NCBI GenBank assembly: GCA_035221665.1
Contig: CM069150.1
Span: forward strand, 35,030,001 to 35,094,000
Direction of reading: 5' to 3'
DNA length: 64,000 bases
Origin: Okamejei kenojei
Lineage: Eukaryota
Shown: in pieces, positions 2,236 through 64,000 of the stretch
How positions within the stretch are numbered: position 1 is the stretch's first letter
How the letters are laid out: every line of letters starts with the position of its first letter
Notes under the pieces: generated by a model
Told to the model about the DNA's origin: nothing
The model's input: only the letters and a program-made list of their open reading frames with translations
Databases searched by the model: none
Made by a program: the position numbers and the translations under genes

Positions 2236-3563
2236 AGAAACACATCTGCGCCTTCCTCCCTCGCAACATGGACCCGTTACAATTTGCATACCGTCCGAAC
2301 AGATCCACGGACGATGCGGTCTCCCAGGTTTTGCACACCGCGCTCTCTCATCTTGACAGCCAGAAAGGGGGCAACGTGAGGAATGCTGTTCATAGACTTC
2401 AGTTCAGCCTTCAACAGCCTTCAACACGATAGTCCCCACCAGACTGGCCGAGAAGCTACTGGAATTAGGGCTCAACACCCCCCTGTGTGCCTGGGCCCTG
2501 GACTTTCTCACCGCTAGGCCCCAGGTAGTCAAGATGGGATGGAATACATCAAAGTCCCTCACCCTGAGCACAGGATCCCCCCAAGTTTGCATCCTCAGCC
2601 CCCTGTTGTACTCCCTGTACACACATGACTGTGTGGTTAGGTTCAGCTCCAACTCGATAATCAAGTTTGCTGATGACACCGTGGTGGTGGGCCTGATCTC
2701 AGACAACGATGAGAAGGCCTACCGGGAGGAGGTGGGTGATCTGGCACTCTGGTGTCAGGACAACAGCCTCCTCTTGAACATCAAAAAAAGTAAGGAGCTG
2801 ATCGTGGACTTTAGGAGGGCACATCATACGAGGACGTACACACCATTGAGGATAAATGGGGATACTGTGGAAAGGGTGAGCTGTTTTAAATACCTGGGAG
2901 TCCACATCTCTGAGGATGTGACATGGACATCACACGCTGCAGCACTGGTGAGTAAGGCAAGGCAGCGCCTTCACCACCTCAGGCAATTGAGGAAATTCAG
3001 AGTGTCTCCGAGGATCCTCCAGTGCTTCTACTCAACAGCTGTGGAAAGCATCTTGTCCGGAAATGTTACAATTTGGTTTGGGAATTGCTCTGCCCAGGAC
3101 AGGAAGGCTCTGCAGAGAGTAGTGCGTTCGGCCGAACGCACTATGGGAACTTCTCTCACCCCTCTGCAGGAACTATACATCAGGAGGTGCAACTCCAGAG
3201 CCAATAAGATAATGGGAGACCCCTTCCACCCCTGCAACGGACTGTTCCAGCTGCTACGGTCAGGCAAACGCCTCCGTTGGCATGCTGTGAGAACGGAGAG
3301 GATGAGAAGGAGTTTTTTCCCAGAGGCCATTCGGACTGTAAACTCCTATCTCACCAGGGACTAACTTTACTAACTTTACTGTACCACAATACCGCCCACA
3401 ATATTTAATATGAAAAAGAACATGTGATTCTGTTCCATTCTGTTTGTAGTTTGTTGGTTGTTTGGTTGTTTGCTTTTTGCACAAAGTCCGCAGGCACGGC
3501 CACTTTTCATTTCACTGCACATCCCATATGTGTATGTGACAAATAAACTTGACTTGACTTGAC
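2236..3563 (+). mobile_element. Rex1/Babar-clade non-LTR retrotransposon, 5'-truncated, young
   Basis: RT motifs [57 protein letters not shown]; C-terminus [18 protein letters not shown]; 3' end aataaa followed by (CTTGA)n. Confidence 0.9.
2242..3364 (+). pseudogene. Reverse transcriptase ORF of the Rex1/Babar element (open 2534-3364; frameshifted upstream)
   Basis: 276-aa ORF with FADD catalytic motif; upstream frame broken by a 1-nt insertion near 2381 and a 10-bp tandem duplication (cagccttcaa x2, 2405-2424). Confidence 0.85.
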
Positions 3564-5769: not shown

Positions 5770-6372
5770 CAATAAACAATAGACAATAGGCGCAGGAGTA
5801 AGCCATTCGGCCCTTCGAGCCAGCAGCGCCATTCAATGTGATCATGGCTGATCATCCCCAGTCAGTACCCCGTTCTTGCCTTCTCCCCATATCCCCTGAC
5901 TCCGCTATTTTTAAGAGCCCTATCTAGCTCTCTCTTGAAAGCATCCAGAGAATCTGCCTCCACCGCCATCTGAGGCAGAGAATTCCACAGACTCACCACT
6001 CTCTGAGAACAAGTGTTTCCTTGTCTCCGTTCTAAATGGCTTACTCCTTATTCTTAAACTGTGGCCCCTGGTTCTGGACTCCCCCAACATTGGGAACATG
6101 TTTCCTACCTCTAGCATTACCAAGCCCATAACAATCTTATATGTTTCAATAAAATCCCCTCTCATCATTCTAAACTCCAGAGTGTACAAGCCCAGCCGCT
6201 CCATTCTCTCAGCATATGACAGTCCCTCCATCCCAGGAATTAACCTTGTTAACCAACGCTGCACTCCCTCAATAGCAAGAATGTCCTTCCTCACATTAGG
6301 GGACCAAAACTGCACACAATACTCCAGATGTGGTTTCACTAAGGCTCTGTACAACTGCAGAAGGACCTCTAC
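5770..6372 (-). mobile_element. CR1 LINE 3' part
   Basis: ORF 5920-6354(-) YRALVKPHLEYCVQFWSP...IEGVQR..TRLIPG...SRTRGHSLRI; short-repeat tail at 5770-5790. Confidence 0.92.
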
Positions 6373-6525
6373 TCTCTGAATTAAAATTTAAAGTAAGTAT
6401 TTTTGTTTGTTTAAGAAGTGAAAAGCTAGCATTTTTACGCAGCAGTTTTTATGTGTTGTGCTTGAATCTCCTTTAATTCCTCTGACTTTCCATCTTAGTC
6501 AAGCACAATCTGACAAAATCTAGTA

Positions 6526-6710
6526 GCTGCAGATGCTGAAAATCTGAAATAAAAACAGAACACGGTGGGAACACCCTGCAGGTCAAGCAGCGTCTGGAAA
6601 GCGAATAGGTCAAAACCCTTTGTCAGAATTCCTTGTTGGCAAATGCTGCCTGACCTGCTGAGTATTTCCAGCATTTTCTCTTTTTATTTACAATCTAACA
6701 ACATCTTTGC
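6526..6710. mobile_element. Older fold-back (palindromic) Penelope-terminus element
   Basis: gcagatgctgaaaatctgaaataaaaacaga...caggtcaagcagc is inverted relative to gctgcctgacctg...tctctttttatttac...acatct. Confidence 0.65.
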
Positions 6711-12584: not shown

Positions 12585-13999
12585 TAGAGCCGGGATTTTG
12601 CCATAAATGCCATGTGCCTTTTCATGCCTTTTTTTTGATGGTTTCAGGAAGATAATGCCTTTTTCGTGTTTGCCTCAATCAGCATTTTTTTGCCATTTAC
12701 CGGGGCAAAACCCGGCTTTAAGTAGGTGTGAAATGGTGATTGGGGAGGAGTAGGTGGGGAAGGATCCACTTACTCCTCCCTTTCCTTGGCAGCTCTGATT
12801 CCTCTTCTCAGCTTGTACTTGGCCTGCCTGTAGAGGTCTGCATCCCCGTTCCTGTAGGATCTACCCCTGCAAGCGTCAAAATGCCTAAAGTCTAGCCAAC
12901 GCCTTGTAAAAAACTGAACGATTTGGTGAGAGTGTACGGGAGTGATATATTCTCGACAGACAACTGTGTGCTGTTTTGCAAAGCATGTGAGAAAGCAGTG
13001 AATCATGAGAAGAAATATTTTGCCTCCCAGCATGTACGGACAGCTAAACACAAGTCGGCGGCAGAGAAACTGAAGGTAGGAAATACGCAAGCCTGTCTCC
13101 TCACAACATTTACTGCTGGCTCCAGTTGCAAATCTGAGTTTTCGAGTGATCTGGGCAAAGCATTCATTGATGCTGGAATTCCACTGTGGAAATTGGAAAA
13201 CAAATCTCTCAGAGGTTTTTTAGGGAAATACACAGAGGAACATATACCAAGCGAGTCATCATTACGGAAAAATTATGTTGACAGCAACTTCAACATTGTT
13301 GTGCAGAAAATTAGAGATGAAGTTGCACGCAACAAAATATGGATCTCAATAGACAAGACAACCAATGCTGTGGGGAGATATGTTGCCAATGTGGTCATCG
13401 GTACACTGGAAGCAGGTCAACCATCAAAGGAGTATTTCTTGTCAGAAGTATTGGAGAAGTCAAAAAGCACAACTATTGCTCAGTTGTTTACATCTTCACT
13501 TGCTGTACTTTGTACTTAAAGTTCCTGGCGATGTAGGTAAAGACATAGAAGGAAAATATGAGAGAGTGATTTTAGCTAACAAAGATCTTGAAGAAATACT
13601 AAGAAATACATAGCTAAAGTTCTCAAAGATATTTGTAATGCACAAGATATCAACGTGAATGTAGAGTTTGTACCTTGTTTCAGGTGTGCACTAGTGACCT
13701 TAGCTGGGGTAGAAATACATTTTTCACAACTGAAGCATATTCTGTCTGACCGACGGCATAGTTTAACACCAGATAATTTGATAAAAATGCTAGTATTTAT
13801 GTGCAACCAGGCAACTTTGGTAATTTAATGTAGTATACCTTTATATTATTATTTTTAACCATATTTTGGTGGAGGAAATTAATGCCTTTTTATGCCTTTT
13901 TTGTCAATAAATGCCTTTTTCATACCTTTTTTGTCATTTTATTATGCCTTTTTGCCTGCCTATTTCAGAGATTTTTAGTGCCTAAACATCCTGGCTCTA
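12585..13999 (+). mobile_element. Internally deleted hAT-superfamily DNA transposon with CGGBP1-like transposase
   Basis: TIRs tagagccgggat / atcctggctcta; probable degenerate 8-bp TSD gttataac / gttttaaa; subterminal tgcctttt repeats at both ends; transposase remnant inside. Confidence 0.85.
12881..13828 (+). pseudogene. CGGBP1-like hAT transposase pseudogene
   Basis: MPKV*PTPCKKLNDLVRVYGSDIFSTDNCVLFCKACEK...SQHVRTAKH (C2H2/BED-like finger), AGIPLWKLEN, IWISIDKTTNAVGRYVANVVIG, then after a deletion the C-terminal dimerisation-like FSQLKHILSDRRHSLTPDNLIKMLVFMCN; in-frame stop at codon 5. Confidence 0.85.
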
Positions 14000-14291: not shown

Positions 14292-15663
14292 ACATTTTGA
14301 AATATAAGTACTGCTGTGTTTTAGACAAAATTTGGGTGATGAATTTGTACACATTGATATTATTTCGGTAATTGTATGTAAGATTAATGGTTAGTTCCTC
14401 ATGATTGTGCATTTAGATAAGAAAAAGTGTCCAGGGCATAGTCAGAACTTGCTACAAGAAGAGAGCGAGCAAGCAGGACATTTCATGCCAATTTCAACAA
14501 TGAGCGCTCTCTTAATATTGGAGAGAAATGCTAGTTCATGCGTGTGAAGCGATTACTTTCTAAGATAAGACCACTGTAAATTGATGCTTGCCTTTGATGT
14601 TGAACTTTTTGTTGTTTCTTGATCCATTTTTGTTAATACATTTCAGTATATTTCCAAAAATGTATGTGCCTTTCAGGTGATTTTTCTATAATTTCAAGAT
14701 TGAATATACTAGTGCTTGAATGGCATTTCAATTCATCCCGAGAACCATATCCTCCACCTGTGCATACTTCCGCTTTCTTCAACAGTATCTTTCCAGTTTC
14801 TCCGTCGGGTTGGCTAATTATGTTCTGGTTTGGTGCACGTTTCTGGTGCTTGTGCAATAATGGGGAACTAGATTGAGAATGCCTCACCTCAATTTACATA
14901 TCTTGGATATGATGAAGAGGGGAGCTTTTCATTGTACCAGACTGATTGCATTTCAATATACTGGACTGTCTTCAAATCCAAGTCCTAAATGATGGTGTTG
15001 AAAAACCATTGTATTGTCTAAATTTAAGGGATGTTTTAAAAGTGACAGCAGTTGGGAATTGGACACATTGCACTGATGAGGCTCAAAGGAAAGTGTCTGC
15101 GAGGCACTATTGCAACACTCCCAAGCCTGTACTTTCCAATTGGGAGGCTTTTTTTCCCCCCACTTCAAACTAATTCCTCGCAGCTGAATTATGTTACTCA
15201 AGAACCAATGGAAAAATATGGTAGGACAAGTTTAAAACTAAAAAGACCAACCCTAGTCAGAAATGTGCACAAAATAACTATACGGGGAATCAATAACAGC
15301 TATTGAGTATTCTAGTCCAGGAATCGTACGCAAGACATTAACAAATCACATCTGCTCAGTGAAATATTGTCAGCCAGTGTTTTAGAGTGAAGCCACTAAA
15401 ACCAATTATTTTGTTAAGTAAATTTAATGGAATAATCATTTGATTCCTCTTTTTTTTCATCCTTAATGTACTAATTATTTCATAATAAAGCTCAAAAATC
15501 CTCTTGTAACTGAACCTCAAATTATACCTATCCAAAGACTGCCACTGTGTTTAGGAGTTGCATTCTATTCCATTACATCATGCTTTTGGGTCATTGCCCC
15601 AGATATTTGCAAGGCCCATAGTACTAAATCAGCAAGGGTGCAAGGAAGAGTGAAGTAAAGATG

Positions 15664-15835
15664 TGTAGAAAGAAACTGCAGATACTGGTTTACACCAAAG
15701 ATAGACACAAAACCAATTAACACGGCGGGTCTGGCAGTATCTCTGGAGAAAAGGAATAGGTGACGTCATCTATTCCTTTTCTCCAGAGATACTGCCTGAC
15801 CCGCTGAGTTACTCCAACATTTTGTGTCCACCTTC
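15664..15835. mobile_element. Fold-back Penelope-terminus element with 15-bp TSD
   Basis: gcagtatctctggagaaaaggaatagg-tgacgtca-tctattcctttttctccagagatactgc palindrome; flanks agtgaagtaaagatg (15649-15663) / agtgaagttaagatg (15836-15850). Confidence 0.85.
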
Positions 15836-36250: not shown

Positions 36251-36362
36251 TGCTTCAAGTCATCTAATTAACAAAATTTTACGATTTACCATCGCAGTAT
36301 AATTAAACCCTTGGTCAGTAGGGATCTGTTTACTTGACCAAAACTAATATTATTGTAGATGG

Positions 36363-36588
36363 ACACAAAATGCTGGAGTAACTCAGCGGGAAGGGCAGCA
36401 TCTCTGGAGAGAAGGAATGGGTGACGTTTCGGATTGAGACCCATCTTCAGACTGATGAAGTCTAAAGAAGGGTCTTGACCCGAAACGTCACCCATTCCTT
36501 CTCTCCAGAGATGCTGCCCGTCACACTGAGTTATTCCAGCATTTGTGTCTATCTTCGGTTTAAACCAGCATCTGCAGTTCCTTCCTAC
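36363..36588. mobile_element. Fold-back Penelope-terminus element
   Basis: ~95-bp inverted arms centred on cttcagactgatgaagtctaaagaag; flanks aatattattgtagatgg (36346-36362) / aaaattatcgtggatgg (36589-36605). Confidence 0.88.
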
Positions 36589-38179: not shown

Positions 38180-38290
38180 GTTGTTTAAGGAAGAACTGCA
38201 GATGCTGGAAAAAGCAAAGGTAGACAAAAATGCTGGAGAAACTCAGAGGGTGAGGCAGCATCTATGGAGCGAAGGAATAGGTGACGTTTC
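38180..38290 (-). mobile_element. Penelope-terminus monomer (truncated)
   Basis: gaactgcagatgctgg...gacaaaaatgctggagaaactcag...ataggtgacgtttc. Confidence 0.8.
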
Positions 38291-38390
38291 TCCAGAAAAA
38301 ATCGTGTTCTTTTGTTTGCTTTCTGTTAAAGGAGTCTTTACATCACTTAAGTTCCTCCAGCTGGGAAAGCAAACAAGTAAGTCAAGGTTT

Positions 38391-38571
38391 ACACAAAAAG
38401 CTGGAGAAACTCAGCGGGTGCAGCAGCATCTAAGGAGCGAAGGAGATAGGCGACGTTTCATGTCGAGACCCTTCTTCAGACGTCTGAAGAAGGGTCTCGA
38501 CCCGAAACGTCGCCTATCTCCTTCGCTTTTTGTGTAACCCTCGATTCTCCAGCATCTGCAGTTCCTTCTTT
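38391..38571. mobile_element. Fold-back Penelope-terminus element with intact hammerhead-like core and 19-bp TSD
   Basis: Palindrome centre cttcttcagacgtctgaagaag; core ctgaaga-agggtctcgaccc-gaaacgtc at 38484-38511; flanks aacaagtaagtcaaggttt (38372-38390) / aacaagtgagtcaaggttt (38572-38590). Confidence 0.9.
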
Positions 38572-39929
38572 AACAAGTGAGTCAAGGTTTTCTGGAGCTC
38601 TTTAACACCCTGTCACAGATGTACACTTATTGTTGGGCAAGGTGCAATTTCTGCCCTGGCCCATAAGTAAGGTTTGTCAGATTTTCTGTGTCATTGAGAA
38701 GATTGTTACATAATGATTAGCCTCTAATCCACTTGATTAATACAAACAAGTTACCTGTGTCCTCTTTAAATTGTGCACATATAGATTGGATTACCATATC
38801 CCTGTATGAGATTAATGCATGGCTTAATTTCTTGAATAAAGTGCAGGATCAGTGTGGCATCAAGTGCAGAAGGTGCAGTACAGAATGGTGCAGTAAATGA
38901 CAATATAACCCGACTTGGCCTATTATGCTTGCATTGCATTGCCTTGATCATTTGACACAAATGCAGCTGGAAGCAAGACCATTAATGCTATTATTTCACT
39001 TTCTGTTCTTTATTTTTGTTGTAAATTTCCAAAATATTTTGCGTGTGTGTGGGGAAAGGGAACACAGATTGGCTAAATTTGTTCCTTGGAAGGAAGTGGA
39101 GAATTGCAACCTTCGGCAGTTGGTGGCAGGTTAGTGGCATTAAAGTGATTAGTGACCGTAACAGTTACCAATAACAAAGGAAATATTGGCATTGATGGCT
39201 TATGCTGTGGTTTCCCTTTCTCAGAACGTCCTGCAATCTCAGAAGTGTGCACAATTTATTTATAGCCGGAACGGAGCACCAGTGGTGTACAAGACGTTCT
39301 AAATGCAGATTGGCTGCTGTATCAGGATTTTTGTATTTTTTGACACCCCTGTGTATTATCATAATTGACTTCTGTACATGATATTGTGTTAAAATGAGGT
39401 GCATTTGTTTAAAGCCCTGGAGTCCCTTTCTTCGATTTTACCAAGTTTCAGCTTCATTGTCTGGGTCACATGACCTCTTCACCAGGCCTGTCCAAAGTTA
39501 TAAAAGCTGAGTGACAGGGAATGGAGATTCAGTGACAGACCAAATATATGAAAGAAATCAGACTGCCAGTTGCCCATTAGAGTGGCTGCTGTACACGGCG
39601 GCCTCATCATGTTTGCTTTCAAACTACACTGAGCACCTAAATCAGCAGAGTGAATGCAGATGGAAGTGGACAGTCGAGCTGCAAATGGCTGCAACAATGT
39701 CATCAAACTTTTTCATTCAACTGCAGGAAAGCTTATTATCGCCATTGTGTTGTGTGTTTAACTGTTTCAGTGAAGCAATCCAGCGATTGAGCTACGAGAG
39801 AAGATGATTCCTGAATTGTAACACTGGTGGGAGGGTTTAACTGGCTAAAAAAACAAAAACTTTGGTGGGAATAAAAGTACAAAGTGCAAGCGGATCTGGC
39901 AGGATCTTCAGAACAATAATAAAACCTGG

Positions 39930-40500: not shown

Positions 40501-40717
40501 ATTTGTTTTCTTAGGATATTGCTGAGGGCATTGGGGTTAGGGTTATGGTTGTGATAAAAGGAAAGGGGCAAAGAATATTTTTTTATAACTATTGGAGGTA
40601 ATCGTACGTGAGCGTGAAGAGAAACCACAGTTTTTAAAGCTTTTTGTTTCTCATTTGCAAGCATTGGCAAAATTGATGGTACAGTTTAAGTGAACTGTTG
40701 AGAATTACACTGAAGTG

Positions 40718-40807
40718 CTGGAGTAACTCAGCAGGTCAGGCAGCATCTCTGGGGAACATGGATAGGTGATGTTTTGGATTAGGACCCTTATTCAGGCCGA
40801 TTGTGTT
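40718..40807 (-). mobile_element. Penelope-terminus monomer with 16-bp flanking repeat
   Basis: ctggagtaactcagcaggtcaggcagcatctctgg...gacccttattcag; flanks gaattacactgaagtg (40702-40717) / gatttacactgaaatg (40808-40823). Confidence 0.78.
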
Positions 40808-41482
40808 GATTTACACTGAAATGGTTTGTGGACCTAAGCACTACAGTTGCTCCATGCTGCATTGGAGGTTCCTTAGAAAGGATCGGAGAGCTTTGGGTCT
40901 CCCATATAAAAATATATTCAAATAACGATCAGAAGTCTGGTTTATTGCTGTGTCTACACTGACGACATCAGTTTCTTCTTGACACCCCGGCAAAGGTGAA
41001 TATGAGGTATTTCTCTTCACACATGAGCAGGTTTGTTCCCTGTATTGTGCTAGTGTCCTCTCGCGGCCCATGTTACTTTTTTAGTGCATATCCATGGTTT
41101 ATTGTCGCAGAAGCAATGCATGAGGATTGCCATTTCACATGTGTATTTTAAGTCCACGAGAGCTTGTGATCAGACGTTTCAATGTGTTCAGTAAGGTCAT
41201 GATAGTATACCATGATTACATTTGTAGCCCAATTTAATCCTGTAATGAAGAAACAAATACAAGCTATGCATTTGAATTTCTAGGTGAGAATTTTACCTTT
41301 GATTGCGACAAACAAGTCTAAATCATAATTCAATTGTTTGTAAAATATTCTAAATAAACTAACAACTTTTTAAAAAAATGCATTCTAAGTGTAATTCATG
41401 TTTGCACTGGAGAGCTTTACACTGAGAGTCTGTTCCATTAGATGTTTGAAAATGCGCTTTGTGTGGGACATTTGAAGAGTTA

Positions 41483-42178
41483 AGGGCCTGTCCCACTTAC
41501 GTGTCCTTGGCACGCAAATTACGCGACCTCGTCGTTGCGTTGAGGCGCACGGGCATCGTGTGGCCGCACGGGGCCGGTCCCACTGAGAAGCGCGGAGGGG
41601 TATGTAGTTGTGCGCGGTATTGCACCGCGCTCCAAAATTTTGTAGCGAACAAAATCTTCGCGCGCCAACAGCCTGTCGCGTAATTGACGGCCAAAGTGGG
41701 ACAGGCCCAAGACCCTGGCGCGACGCAACGTTCTCACCTCGAACAGCAGCAGAAGCAGGCAAATGATCGCCGAGCTCGGCCTGGGGCTCACGGCCGTTGT
41801 GGATCTCATCCTCCCCCACTTCTACTCCCAGAGCGGGGCCAAGAAAATTGAAGATAGACACAAAATGCTGGAGTAACTCAGCGGGACCGGCAGCATCACT
41901 GGAGAGAAGCAATGGGTGACGTTTCGGGTCAAGACCCTTCTTTCAGACTGAAGAAGAGTCTCGACATGAACCGTCACTCATTCCTTCCCTCCAGAGATGC
42001 TGCTGGTCCCGCTGAGTTACTCCAGCATTTTGTGTCTAACTTCAAATGACGTCATGCGCTCCAGGCAGCTGTGCGGACCTATGATGTCACGTGTGACCTT
42101 CGCGGTACCGTCGCGCCTCAACGCGACCAGGAGGTTGCGTAATTAGCGTGCCAAGGACACGTAAGTGGGACAGGGGCT
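41483..42178. mobile_element. PIF/Harbinger-like MITE, ~696 bp
   Basis: ~65-bp TIRs agggcctgtcccacttacgtgtccttggcacgc.aattacgc / gcgtaattagcgtgccaaggacacgtaagtgggacaggggct; TTA on the left. Confidence 0.8.
41846..42047. mobile_element. Fold-back Penelope-terminus element nested in the MITE
   Basis: ttgaagatagacacaaaatgctggagtaactcagcgggacc... inverted relative to ...ggtcccgctgagttactccagcattttgtgtctaacttcaa. Confidence 0.88.
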
Positions 42179-44042
42179 GAAGGCTGCAAGGATGTCGCAT
42201 CCATTTGATAATGTCTTGTGCTTGAATCCATTGCTCTAGCTGGTCAGGACCGACGTGACGATTTGAAATTCTAATGTACTTATAATTGTCATTAAATCTC
42301 TTTACTTGTCATAATCAATACAATTTTTAATCTGTGAGTTTTTCTATAAATACAATTGCAGTAAACTACTGCAATTGAGCAAAAATCAAATAACTGATAA
42401 CACTGAAAGGCGGCAAGCAGCAGATATACTCGAGTTTGGCAAGCTGCCAGGTTGAAACCCAATCATTTCTTTCAGAGCTGGTCTAGTAAATCCCAAAATA
42501 CTATCCCTCGAAATACAACCTCTTAGTACTTTAATGTTACATCCAAATCCTTATTTTTCTCCCATATTGGCTCCCTTTTATCATATTACTTTATATGGTG
42601 TTTCACATTGATTCATATTTCCTCATGCCAAACGTGCTCAATGATTAACATCCATGTTTCAATATTTTTACAGTTTGTGTGATGAGCACATAATTAATCA
42701 ACTGTTAAATTTATCCTTTCCTTATGTCGGATTCACATTCTATAGTTACCCTGGTCAATAGTTACTGGTTCAGACATCCAATCCTCATCCCTTATAAACT
42801 TGCGCAACCAGTCAATACAGCAACTAATGCAACTAATTGACTAACTGCTAGCCTCATTTTGGACCACCTCATTGTGACTAACTGTCTAGTCTGGCGTGTA
42901 ACTCTGCACTTGTTGCTGTCTCCTACCATTAACAATCTCTTAACTCTTTGGTTGTTTACTCAATATATTTGTATCGGATGCACAATGCGACTTTGTCTCA
43001 TGTTCCTATGATGGTGCATCAGCACCAGAGCCTGAGCAACAATATGTGATGAGTGTTTAATTGAGGTGTTGCAGAATTAATGAAGAGGGGCATTTTGTTT
43101 GATCCACAGTTTTAAGACAGTTTGGTGGTGATGCAGTATTCCTCCCTTGTCTTTTATTTGGCCTAGCTTTAGTTTCTCCTTTCTGCAACACACAGTGGCC
43201 AAAGTAGCATTGTGCCTCCGTGCATAGACCCACAGACCCAAGTAGTCATTTTTGGGAGGCATCATTCCATATTTGATGTTACCCATATCTCTTCATCATT
43301 AATCAGATGCTGTAGGTGCTCGTCATGCTCGTTGTTTATTATCCCCTTCCCAGAATCTTCAATCACACAAACCATTACCTCCTAGCACTGTCTCTGAATA
43401 TTCTAACTGTACATTCCCATCAAAAACTCCCATTAGCAAGAATGGTACCAATACCACTGGAATGATGTCCTGATCATCATCTTATCCAAACAGAATGCCA
43501 TGTTCTCATTCCAAATGAACCATTAATGTAATTAAAGTTTACGGATATGGGAAACGCTAGTCGTATTGTTAATTATTTTGGCTTTTTAGTTAATAACCAA
43601 ATCAAACTCTGAATACATGCTGCATCCGATGCCTCTTGAAGGAATATGGTTCCCATTAGCTTAATTTTTAATTAATTGCATCCTTCCAATCTCTGTCACC
43701 AACATAGATAGACATTCTGAAGAAGGGTCCCGACCCGAAACGTCACCAATTCAATACCTCTCATAATGTATTTCTACATGTTATCTAAATAAATACAGTT
43801 TCCTTCTGACAATTTGCCATGGATTCTGTTCCTACCCATTTCTGCCAAATCTTATGCTGTTTGTTACTTAGCTTCTCTGACACCTTTCTCTGCTCTTGTT
43901 TTGTTTCTAATTTTACAACAGCAGTTCTCTTTACTAATTTAACATGAATTAATTGTAAACAGCTCCCTTGCCATTATTGTGTTGATCTATCCAAGCTCGT
44001 TTGTATGGCCCCCTTGCACAAAGTCTATTCAAGTCCATGTAA

Positions 44043-45535: not shown

Positions 45536-45630
45536 ACGTCTGAAGAAGGGTCTCGACCCGAAACGTCGCCTATCTCCTTCGCTCCTTAGATGCTGCTGCA
45601 CCCGCTGAGTTTCTCCAGCTTTTTGTGTAA
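45536..45630 (+). mobile_element. Penelope-terminus monomer with intact hammerhead-like core, inserted in a CR1 tail
   Basis: gtctgaagaagggtctcgacccgaaacgtcgcctatctccttcgc, identical to 38482-38526. Confidence 0.85.
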
Positions 45631-53783: not shown

Positions 53784-53940
53784 AAGAAAGAATTGCAGAT
53801 GCTGGGTTTACACTGAAGATGGACACAAAATGCTGGAGTAGCTCAACGGGTCAGGCAGCATCTTTGGATCTGACTGATAAACGGTCTCAACCCGATACGT
53901 CACCTATTCATTTTCTACAGAGATGCTGCTTGTCCCCTTT
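53784..53940. mobile_element. Degenerate fold-back Penelope-terminus element
   Basis: Antisense arm then ctgataaacggtctcaacccgatacgtcacc; flanks caggattttgtgc (53771-53783) / caggattctgtac (53941-53953). Confidence 0.75.
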
Positions 53941-55351: not shown

Positions 55352-55490
55352 AAGACAGACACAAAATGCTGGAGTAACTCAGCGGGACAGGAGGAATGGG
55401 TGACGTTTCGGGGTGGTGCCCCTTCTTCAGAGTTACTACAACATTTTGTGTCTGTCTTTGGTTTAAACCAGCATCTGCAATTCTCTCATA
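55352..55490. mobile_element. Internally deleted fold-back Penelope-terminus element
   Basis: aaagacagacacaaaatg.. / ..cattttgtgtctgtcttt; flanks caagtgcactaca (55339-55351) / catgtccactaca (55491-55503). Confidence 0.78.
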
Positions 55491-56199: not shown

Positions 56200-57502
56200 G
56201 GAAGTCAGCATGGATTTACGAAAGGTAAATCATGTCTGATGAATCTTATGGAATTTTTCGAGGATGTAACTAGTAGCGTGGATAGGGGAGAACCAGTGCA
56301 TGTGGTGTATCTGGACTTCCAGAACGCTTTCAACAAGGTCCCACATAAGAGATTAGTATACAAACTTAAAGCATACGGCATTGGGGGTTCAGTATTGATG
56401 TGGATAGAGAACTGGCTGGTAGACAGGAAGCAAAGAGTAGGAATAAACGGGTCCTTTTCACAATGGCAGGCAGTGACCAGTGGGGTATAGCAAGGCTCAG
56501 TGCTGGGACCCCAGCTATTTACAATATATATTAATGATCGGGATGAGGGAATTGAAGGCAATATCTCCAAGTTTGCGGATGACACTAAGCTGGGGGGCAG
56601 TGTTAGCTGTGAGGAGGATGCTAGGAGACTGCAAGGTGACTTGGATAGGCTGGGTGAGTGGGCAAATGTTTGGCAGATGCAGTATAATGTGGATAAATGT
56701 GAGGTTATCCACTTTGGTGGCAAAAACAGGAAGGCAGACTATTATCTAAATGGTGGCCGATTAGGAAAAGGGGAGATGCAGCGAGACCCGGGTGTCATGG
56801 TACACCAGTCATTAAAAGTAGGCATGCAGGTGCAGCAGGCAGTGAAGAAAGCGAATGGTATGTTAGCATTCATAACAAAAAGATTTGAGTATAGGAGCAG
56901 GGAGGTTCTACTTCAGTTGTATAGGGTCTTGGTGAGACCACACCTGGAGTATTGCATACAGTTCTGGTCTCCAAATCTGAGGAAGGACATTATTGCCATA
57001 GAGGGAGTGCAGAGAAGGTTCACCAGACTGATTCCTGGGATGTCAGGACTTTCATATGAAGAAAGACTCGACTTGTACTCGACTCGGCTTGTACTCGCTA
57101 GAATTTAGGAGATTGAGAGGGGATCTTATAGAAACTTACAAAATTCTTAAGAGGTTGGACAGGCTAGATGCAGGAAGATTGTTCCCGATGTTGTGGCGGT
57201 CCAGGACAAGGGGTCACAGCTTAAGGATAAGGGGGAAATCCTTTAAGACCGAGATGAGAAAGACTTTTTTCACACAGAGAGTGGTGAGTCTCTGGAACTC
57301 TCTGCCACAGAGGGTAGTTGAGGGCAGTTCATTGGCTATATTTAAGAGGGAGTTAGATGTGGCCCTTGTGGGGATCAGAGGGTACGGAGAGAAGGCAGGT
57401 ACGGGATACTGAGTTGGATGATCATCCATGATCATATTGAATGGCGGTGCAGGCTTGAAGGGCCGAATGGCCTACTCCTGCATCTAATTTCTATCTTTCT
57501 AT
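56200..57502 (+). mobile_element. Young 5'-truncated CR1 LINE with nearly intact RT
   Basis: SQHGFTKGKSCL, VVYLDFQNAFNKVPH, GV*QGSVLGP (stop at 56488-56490), ISKFADDTKLGG, LVRPHLEYCIQFWSP, RTRGHSLRI; tail tttctatctttctatc. Confidence 0.95.
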
Positions 57503-62503: not shown

Positions 62504-63069
62504 ATGTGCTGTCTCCCCCTTGCATCTGATTTTAATCTGCTCCTTTAAGCATTTTGTAAACTGAGAGTTCTTAGTTATTCAAAGCATAAATGGGCGAAAT
62601 GTCGGGTGATGACAGATGGGTTATAAAGGGAAGGTGTGTGTTTGCACCATTTGTGGCTTGGAGATGCAGAGGTTATTGTATGAAGAGGAAATGGGATACA
62701 AAAACATGGGAAAGGGACACCAAATGCGGGAGTAACTCAATGGGTCAGGCACCATCTCTGGAAAAAATGGATGTAACATTTCGGGTCAGGACCCTCTTCA
62801 GACTGATTGTAGTAAGGAGAATGGGGGGGAGGGCTTAAAGAGAGATGAAAACAGGACACACTCCGGTTGACCTTAGGCAAGAAGGTTGTCTGATAGGCCA
62901 ATTGTGGGCTAGAGACAAGTGTGAGCCCAAGAGGAATACATAGTTGTGAACTGTGGAGACTTTTACTGGAGGGATGAGGGTGTAGAGGGAGCTGTTGATA
63001 GAAGTAACAAAAAAATTAACATCCAACATTCATACTGCTAGGGTGTAGGCTACCCAAGTGAAATATGAG
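62504..63069. repeat. Direct duplication copy 2
   Basis: Matches 59842-60397; continues seamlessly into the Penelope ORF remnant. Confidence 0.97.
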
Positions 63070-63870
63070 GTGCTGCTCCTCCAATTTGCATGTGGCGTCA
63101 TTCTAGCAATGGAGGTGGCCCAGAACGGAAAGGTCATTATGGGAATGGAAAAGGGAGTTAAAGTGGTTACCAACTGGAAGATCCAGTAGCGGACCAAAAC
63201 TCATCTGTTCAACAAAACGGTGTACGCTTGGTGTCACCAATGTACAGGAGCCCGCATCAGGAACATCGACTGCAGTAGATGGAAGTTAGAGGAGGTGTGT
63301 GTGTGTCTCTGTCTCACCTGGAAGGACTGCTGGGACCCCTGTATGGAGTCAAGGGAGGAGGTATAAGTACAGGTGTTGCATCTCCTGTGGCTGCAGGGAA
63401 AATATCTGGAGAGGGGGTGGTTTGAGTGGGAAGGGATGGGTGAACCAAGGAGTTGCGGAGGAAGCAGTCTCTACGCAAGGTGGAGATGGGAAGATATGAT
63501 TAGTGGTGGGATCTCGTTGGAGGTGATGGAAATGTCAGAGGATGATATGTTGGATGCAGAGGCTGGTTGGGTGTCAGAGGACCAGAGGAACTCTGTCCTT
63601 GTTGCCTCTGGGGATAGAGGGAGTGAGTGCAGAACTCCGGGACACAGAAGAGACATGGGTGATGGAACCATCTATGGCAACTGGGAGGGAAACCAGGTTT
63701 TCTAATGAATGAGGAAATCTTAGATGTCCTTGTATGGAAAGCCTCTTCTTGGGAGCAGCTGTGGCAGAGACAGAGGATTGAGAGTAGGGGATAGCATCTT
63801 TGCAAGAGGCAGGGTGGGTGGAGGTGTGGCCAAGATAACGGTGGGGGTTGGTAGGTATGTCCACTAAATC
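62712..63870 (-). mobile_element. Penelope-like retroelement 3' part (RT thumb, GIY-YIG endonuclease, UTR, terminus), pseudogenised
   Basis: PTNPHRYLGHTSTHPASCKDAIPYSQ, CSQEEAFHTRTSKISSF, NKDRVPLVL, IYCSRCS*CGLLYIGDTKR, KLEEQHLIFHLGSLHP; hammerhead-like terminus at ~62770-62805. Confidence 0.9.
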
Positions 63871-63879
63871 TAGTCCCTG

Positions 63880-63975
63880 GTAGACACAAAATGCTGGAAT
63901 AACTCAGCGGGACAGGCAGCATCTCTGGTGAGAAGGAATGGGTGACGATTCAGGTCGAGACCCTTCTTCAGACTG
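63880..63975 (-). mobile_element. Penelope-terminus monomer with 9-bp flanking repeat
   Basis: gacacaaaatgctggaataactcagcggg...ggtcgagacccttcttcagact; tagtccctg at 63871-63879 and 63987-63995. Confidence 0.82.
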
Positions 63976-64000
63976 GTCTCTTTGTTTAGTCCCTGTATTG

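Follow-up and report, generated by a model that had tools for sequence, protein, structure and literature searches.

Fold-back insertion and other Penelope-like termini in the window

The window analyzed here is a 64,000-nt stretch of the skate Okamejei kenojei genome (GCA_035221665.1, contig CM069150.1), in which the focal insertion consists of two head-to-head arms that read as the terminus of a Penelope-like element (PLE), enclosed by a target-site duplication (TSD) (Table 1). The 18/19 direct repeat reported around it in an earlier note on this DNA was confirmed. No spacer separates the arms, which join at 38481|38482 and form a 46-bp stem with 96% complementarity. In the right arm, the deleted stretch is +44 to +80 (37 nt), with a 3-nt microhomology, and the final 4 nt are shared with the right TSD. 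The predicted hammerhead motif of this arm comprises the core, a 5-bp helix II, a palindromic 4-nt helix III region and a helix I of just 2 bp; the left arm carries a mirror copy with two substitutions. The focal copy folds at -109 kcal/mol (z -14.9), a value without special weight because any palindrome would yield it. The same family is also represented by an older monomer with a tail at 38182-38296, 80 bp to the left of the insertion.

All seven fold-backs previously listed in the window were found, and six of them have the tail on exactly one arm, the exception being 41846-42047. The fold-back at 6526 is present as described, but the end given for it (6710) overshoots into a flanking repeat of 15/17 (6505-6521/6690-6706, identified by eye) that had not been reported. 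The repeat at 15649/15836 (14/15) was recovered by the automatic TSD finder, and those at 36346/36589 (14/17), 53771/53941 (11/13) and 55339/55491 (11/13), as well as the monomer repeats at 40702/40808 (14/16) and 63871/63987 (9/9), were verified by eye; the finder returned 9-13-bp cores for the 53771, 55339, 40702 and 63871 repeats and missed the one at 36346. The monomer at 63880-63986 was inserted beside the decayed remains of an older PLE, an RT-thumb/GIY-YIG fragment at 63001-63860.

The exceptional fold-back multiplies solely as cargo of a MITE-like element. Positions 41476-42187 form a ~710-bp repeat with ~60-bp terminal inverted repeats, whose relatives were observed at five other loci (L093, L126, L175, L248 and L315); in the first three, the same flanks surround an insert gap of 167-204 bp at the same place. 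Other repeats in the window include non-LTR retrotransposon RT fragments at 2396-3364, 56491-57412 and 5920-6387 (with RVT_1 matches for the first two) and a DUF659-containing fragment at 12896-13519 (E=2.5e-5, under the cut-off), likely a DNA transposon relic.

Table 1. Coordinates of the focal fold-back and of other PLE termini in the window
Feature	Position	Strand	Remarks
Left TSD, 19 bp	38372..38390		18/19 identical to right copy
Left arm, PLE terminus +1..+91	38391..38481	-	stops at S1, tail-less; 97.8% to young genomic copy
Right arm, PLE terminus +1..+130, 37-nt internal deletion	38482..38575	+	stops at S2
Minimal type-I hammerhead motif, predicted	38484..38511	+	sequence reading against the description available in PMC4209133
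Tail, 35 nt, S1-to-S2 stretch	38541..38575	+	geometry as for the tail described in PMC11167929
Right TSD	38572..38590		mate of left TSD, one mismatch in 19 bp
Old fold-back, divergent subfamily	6526..6689		tail on left arm; 15/17 flanking repeat, by eye
Old fold-back	15664..15835		tail on left arm; centre is the hammerhead's 4-nt palindrome; TSD 14/15
Fold-back	36363..36588		tail on right arm; 5-nt spacer; TSD 14/17
Tail-less fold-back	41846..42047		no TSD; cargo within MITE-like repeat 41476-42187
Old fold-back	53784..53940		tail on left arm; TSD 11/13
Old fold-back	55352..55490		tail on right arm; TSD 11/13
Old monomer terminus	40718..40807	-	14/16 flanking repeat
Young monomer terminus, focal subfamily	45538..45628	+	begins at +1
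Monomer terminus	63880..63986	-	9-bp TSD

The arm and its parent element

Judged from its sequence, the arm corresponds to the last ~130 nt of a putatively Neptune-type PLE. Numbering sets +1 at the G two bases ahead of the hammerhead core. The arm contains the hammerhead motif (+3 to +30) and two fixed 3' ends, S1 near +95 and S2 near +130, whose distance is the 35-nt tail. Both the minimal hammerhead and the rule of one tail per fold-back had escaped the earlier note. An Rfam scan of the window detected no hammerhead, and only sub-threshold matches of miRNA-type hairpins were returned.

In the parent PLE, RT, a CX4CxxC linker and, at the C terminus, GIY-YIG precede the terminus. The Penelope-like origin suggested earlier for the fold-backs was upheld. 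Pfam analysis of a broken copy (L113) gave RVT_1 (E=7e-6) and GIY-YIG (E=2e-4), both slightly under the curated cut-offs. In translation, a CX2-5CxxC linker lies between RT and EN and cysteines lie between GIY and YIG, the features by which EN+ PLEs are defined in PMC8557442. A partial-tandem organization with pLTR, hammerhead motif and a 35-nt tail (within the 30-40 bp range) was found in three copies: L221 and L228 also have the terminus upstream of the ORF region, and L223 starts within the tail. L102/L104, considered as a 5-kb element, was rejected as a segmental duplication. At L221:4870-5000, an ATG in the terminus opens a frame that continues across the tail as far as a candidate splice donor ~35 nt past S2; the contigs examined contained no spliced joint.

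Young copies in the genome and their TSDs

Exact genome matches numbered 29,443 for a 35-mer over the hammerhead and 59,546 for a 31-mer nearer S1. The first 100 listed matches per pattern, on contig C1 (99 of 100 for the 35-mer; 100 plus two neighbours for the 31-mer), yielded 147 elements with 161 arms in total: 65 monomers, 52 long copies, 29 fold-backs and 1 other. Two duplicated pairs, one segmental and one cargo, remain in this sample. Based on 22 young fold-backs per 100 31-mer matches, their number in the whole genome is estimated at ~13,000.

TSDs of 12-24 bp were observed in 25 of the 29 young fold-backs and in 0/300 shuffled flank pairs. The earlier view of fold-backs as minimal insertions of an inverted terminus pair, each with its own TSD, was upheld; the coexistence of young and old subfamilies was also corroborated. 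Monomers had TSDs less frequently (26/65, against 1/300 shuffled pairs; Fisher P=4e-5 for fold-backs versus monomers). As in PLE inverted-pLTR insertions, the pLTRs are head to head, with a tail at one end only (25/29) and a TSD.

For the focal site, four DNA runs were compared, three of which do not span both flanks. In the run labelled X19, a contig of a related organism covers 38580-39100 from its letter 53 onwards (~94% identity) and lacks the tail, and the depth on the left flank is consistent with the same contig. This contig likely holds a single TSD copy, which points to an empty focal site.

Pairing of S1 and S2 arms

The outer ends of the fold-backs are not combined at random. S1 is paired with S2 in 25 of 29, S1 with S1 in none and S2 with S2 in one, and three have an unclassified end; the S1+S2 excess over independent ends is significant (P=2e-9, 25/26 classified). 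Monomers and long copies taken together end at S1 in 82 and at S2 in 32 of 117 cases (monomers alone, S1 in 45/65). S1+S2 pairing also holds for each of the five long fold-backs (0.7-4.3 kb), four of them with a TSD; a sixth row (L234) was removed from this set because it had been falsely paired with a cargo copy. Moreover, among 25 fold-backs the tailed arm begins >4 nt further out than the tail-less one in 14, the reverse applies in 2 and the arms are equal in 9, and in two fold-backs the tailed arm is the tail alone. Where arms are non-nested or tail-only, neither arm can have templated the other. Thus, the combination of one S1 and one S2 arm, often non-nested, favours priming at both nicks over snap-back self-priming, although non-nesting could also result if one side lost sequence after insertion (despite the lopsided 14 versus 2) and the nested 9/25 fit both mechanisms equally.

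We assign a probability of roughly 0.7 to the reading that every hairpin arose independently as a minimal insertion of a Neptune-type PLE, made by twin (or dual) priming at S1 and S2. RT would prime one cDNA at each of two staggered DNA nicks, one cDNA beginning at S1 and the other at S2, and the two short cDNAs would then be joined head to head, the junction probably being sealed through microhomology or end joining. S1 and S2 would be RT start sites, as the comparison with the anole element discussed below suggests. The hammerhead is probably a passenger. Twin priming on one RNA molecule and on two would look alike in these data. In two fold-backs (L167 and L356), 36-41 nt from downstream of the tail sit at the centre, which indicates that the template ran beyond S2, as in tandem copies.

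Inner ends, putative RNA start and hammerhead

PLE promoters have been located in the pLTR (PMC2377424). Here, the inner ends of the arms pile up at -2 to +6: 3,580 arms in the genome begin exactly at 0 and 3,735 at +1, and of 60 such arms inspected, none belonged to a long copy. Of the TSD-bounded monomers, 24/26 start at -4 to +9; this subset was used because some monomers scored at -1 have the C-rich upstream sequence of another subfamily and may be long copies. The pile-up site fits the initiator consensus. Given this match, the pLTR position of the promoters and the sequence from past the tail in L167 and L356, the likeliest explanation is that the pile-up represents run-off from an upstream pLTR at the 5' end of the RNA, with a putative initiator-like start. 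RNA contigs examined for this purpose revealed no start site. An extra-G test for a cap gave a mixed outcome: a G precedes starts at 0 in 36/100 (31% expected, P=0.15) and starts at +1 in 47/100 (32% expected, P=0.001, inflated by microhomology joins), and among 15 TSD-bounded copies scored by hand, 8 have G as the last untemplated base (P=0.012, without matched control).

It is rather unlikely, though worth weighing, that twin priming made the insertions but that the 5' pile-up marks RT stalling at the hammerhead RNA structure, or a ribozyme-cut template, instead of a transcription start. The main cluster does abut the 5' edge of the hammerhead core, and a second cluster of inner ends adjoins the predicted cut after +30 (52/100 listed at +34/+35, 18/100 at +31/+32 and none at +30, tallied by hand with internal deletions and a tandem array counted in). 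This smaller cluster, at +31 to +35, may reflect stalling or ribozyme cutting. However, the position of the main cluster, upstream of the cut site, means that those templates were uncut; helix I has 2 bp, the fold of the native terminus does not surpass those of shuffled sequences (z about -0.6), and ribozyme cutting was unneeded by an anole PLE in vitro, as described in PMC11167929.

We tentatively consider the possibility that PLE integration in general is a two-ended reaction, in which a dimer would allocate the start sites S1 and S2 to different nicks, and most insertions would be run-offs that begin in an upstream pLTR and reach the capped 5' end. Since the start motif and the two priming sites are all contained in the 131-nt terminus, secondary donors could include solo termini and hairpins; one local pair fits this idea.

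Single-cDNA and hairpin-family alternatives

Snap-back self-priming, in which one cDNA folds at its end and is copied into the second arm (PMC3846280 proposes a version with antisense RNA), appears improbable. It would suit the commonest centre counted, which occurs in 803 copies of old and young subfamilies and coincides with a natural quasi-palindrome located at the 5' hot spot, as well as the variants, even private ones, common to both arms (L256) and the nested minority of fold-backs. Nevertheless, it needs one arm to lie within the other, which fails for 14/25 fold-backs and for the two with a tail-only arm, and it leaves unexplained why the short arm should stop at S1, as most monomers do.

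Comparison of palindrome centres and breakpoints revealed 26 junction types among the 29 unselected fold-backs of the chromosome sample. The picture of ordinary truncations with unique breakpoints, offered earlier as one option, does not hold, since ends are shared between copies owing to a 5' stop hot spot and two fixed putative start sites in the element. The focal centre has 33 copies genome-wide, with at least three variant types that are each mirrored on both arms. Among 30 loci scored by eye for the asymmetric 803-copy centre, 14 have the tail on one side, 13 have it on the other and 3 lack it, which argues against a master copy, as this would fix the tail side. In a permutation test of 61 fold-backs (the sample plus selected centre classes), variants matched between arms in 49/56, 35/37 and 39/39 cases, against permuted means of 27.8, 21.5 and 33.5, respectively.

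Recurrent junctions also have recurrent flanks and are thus carried as cargo of larger repeats; besides the window case, two further fold-backs are amplified with shared flanks (L317, L319, L323, L331, L332 and L211; L304, L307, L309 and L298). The signs expected of descent from a few masters, a shared junction and arm-asymmetric diagnostics in unrelated flanks, were not found, with a single two-copy exception: L241 and L242 (G000:C1 near 834.6 kb and 890.1 kb) are the sole two genome-wide copies of one 7-nt junction, lie 55 kb apart in the same orientation and have different TSDs, which fits local re-copying of a hairpin or gene conversion. Nor do the skate fold-backs have the head-to-tail tandem hammerhead units of retrozymes.

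The self-propagating, non-autonomous SINE- or retrozyme-like hairpin family of the earlier note, copied from few hairpin masters, is therefore very improbable: the near-identical ~220-bp hairpins that are the best BLAST matches to the focal copy, and that first suggested such a fixed family, were selected for likeness (the idea was rejected as ascertainment), the identical junctions of certain fold-backs come with shared flanks, only the L241/L242 junction remains in its favour, and the diversity of junctions, the few focal-centre copies, the tail on either side of the commonest centre and the co-variation of arms by subfamily all speak against it.

Comparison with known systems

The anatomy is already in print (PMC3846280 and PMC8557442): these are inverted-pLTR insertions whose ORF is reduced to nothing, and neither a retrozyme nor a SINE-like family. 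A literature search that covered few subscription journals found no report on ORF-less PLE fold-backs in cartilaginous fish, and none that pairs S1 and S2 with two nicks or gives such counts. The closest relatives are the inverted-pLTR insertions of Adineta Pen2a_Av (PMC3846280; overview in PMC8557442), which are described with head-to-head pLTRs, a palindromic or overlapping junction, a 30-40-bp tail at one end only and a TSD around the whole unit. In contrast to these, the skate insertion is the pLTR pair alone, ORF-less and in ~13,000 young copies by our estimate, and its non-nested arms argue against the self-priming model of PMC3846280.

For the anole Poseidon element PAc, cutting and extension of both strands in vitro and a predicted dimer are described in PMC11167929, together with two internal RT start sites that bound the tail, ~100-130 nt downstream of the hammerhead, much as in the skate terminus. 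PAc belongs to another clade, however, and the skate start sites are deduced from insertion ends; in the available part of that account, the two start sites are not paired with the two nicks and fold-backs are not discussed. Twin or dual priming of L1, according to PMC2837659, likewise gives a TSD-bounded inverted pair, in which both nicks are primed and microhomology or end joining seals the inner junction. The second priming of L1 occurs at an arbitrary internal site, whereas the skate primings would be at fixed sites of the element, and a hairpin results because the skate arms share overlapping sequence. Non-LTR retrozymes and minimal PLE hammerheads (bioRxiv 10.64898/2026.07.22.740005; PMC4209133) are also ORF-less and pLTR-derived, with a type-I hammerhead motif. 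Retrozymes are described as head-to-tail tandem units with one hammerhead each (bioRxiv 10.64898/2026.07.22.740005), unlike the head-to-head skate pairs, whose two motifs are on opposite strands and paired up in the hairpin.

The origin of PLE inverted repeats and of the one-sided tail is treated as an open question in the available text of PMC8557442 and PMC3846280, and the thousands of tiny skate copies provide counts that speak more for priming at both nicks than for self-priming. For the existing in vitro PLE system, the prediction is that each nick uses a different start site and that cDNA ends at the 5' end of the RNA. As a genome feature, the hairpins are transposon debris.

Head-to-tail joints of the terminus were also observed. 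In run X5, from another organism, contigs matching L221:4820-4960 have joints from +130 to +140 back to -1 with short spacers, which resemble tandem retrozyme-type arrays of the terminus. In the skate genome, head-to-tail terminus pieces occur at G000:C1:123838956-123839212 (57-nt period) and C1:7376591 (triple tail); together with runs of A or C at the S2 and S1 ends, they suggest reiterative copying at the start sites.
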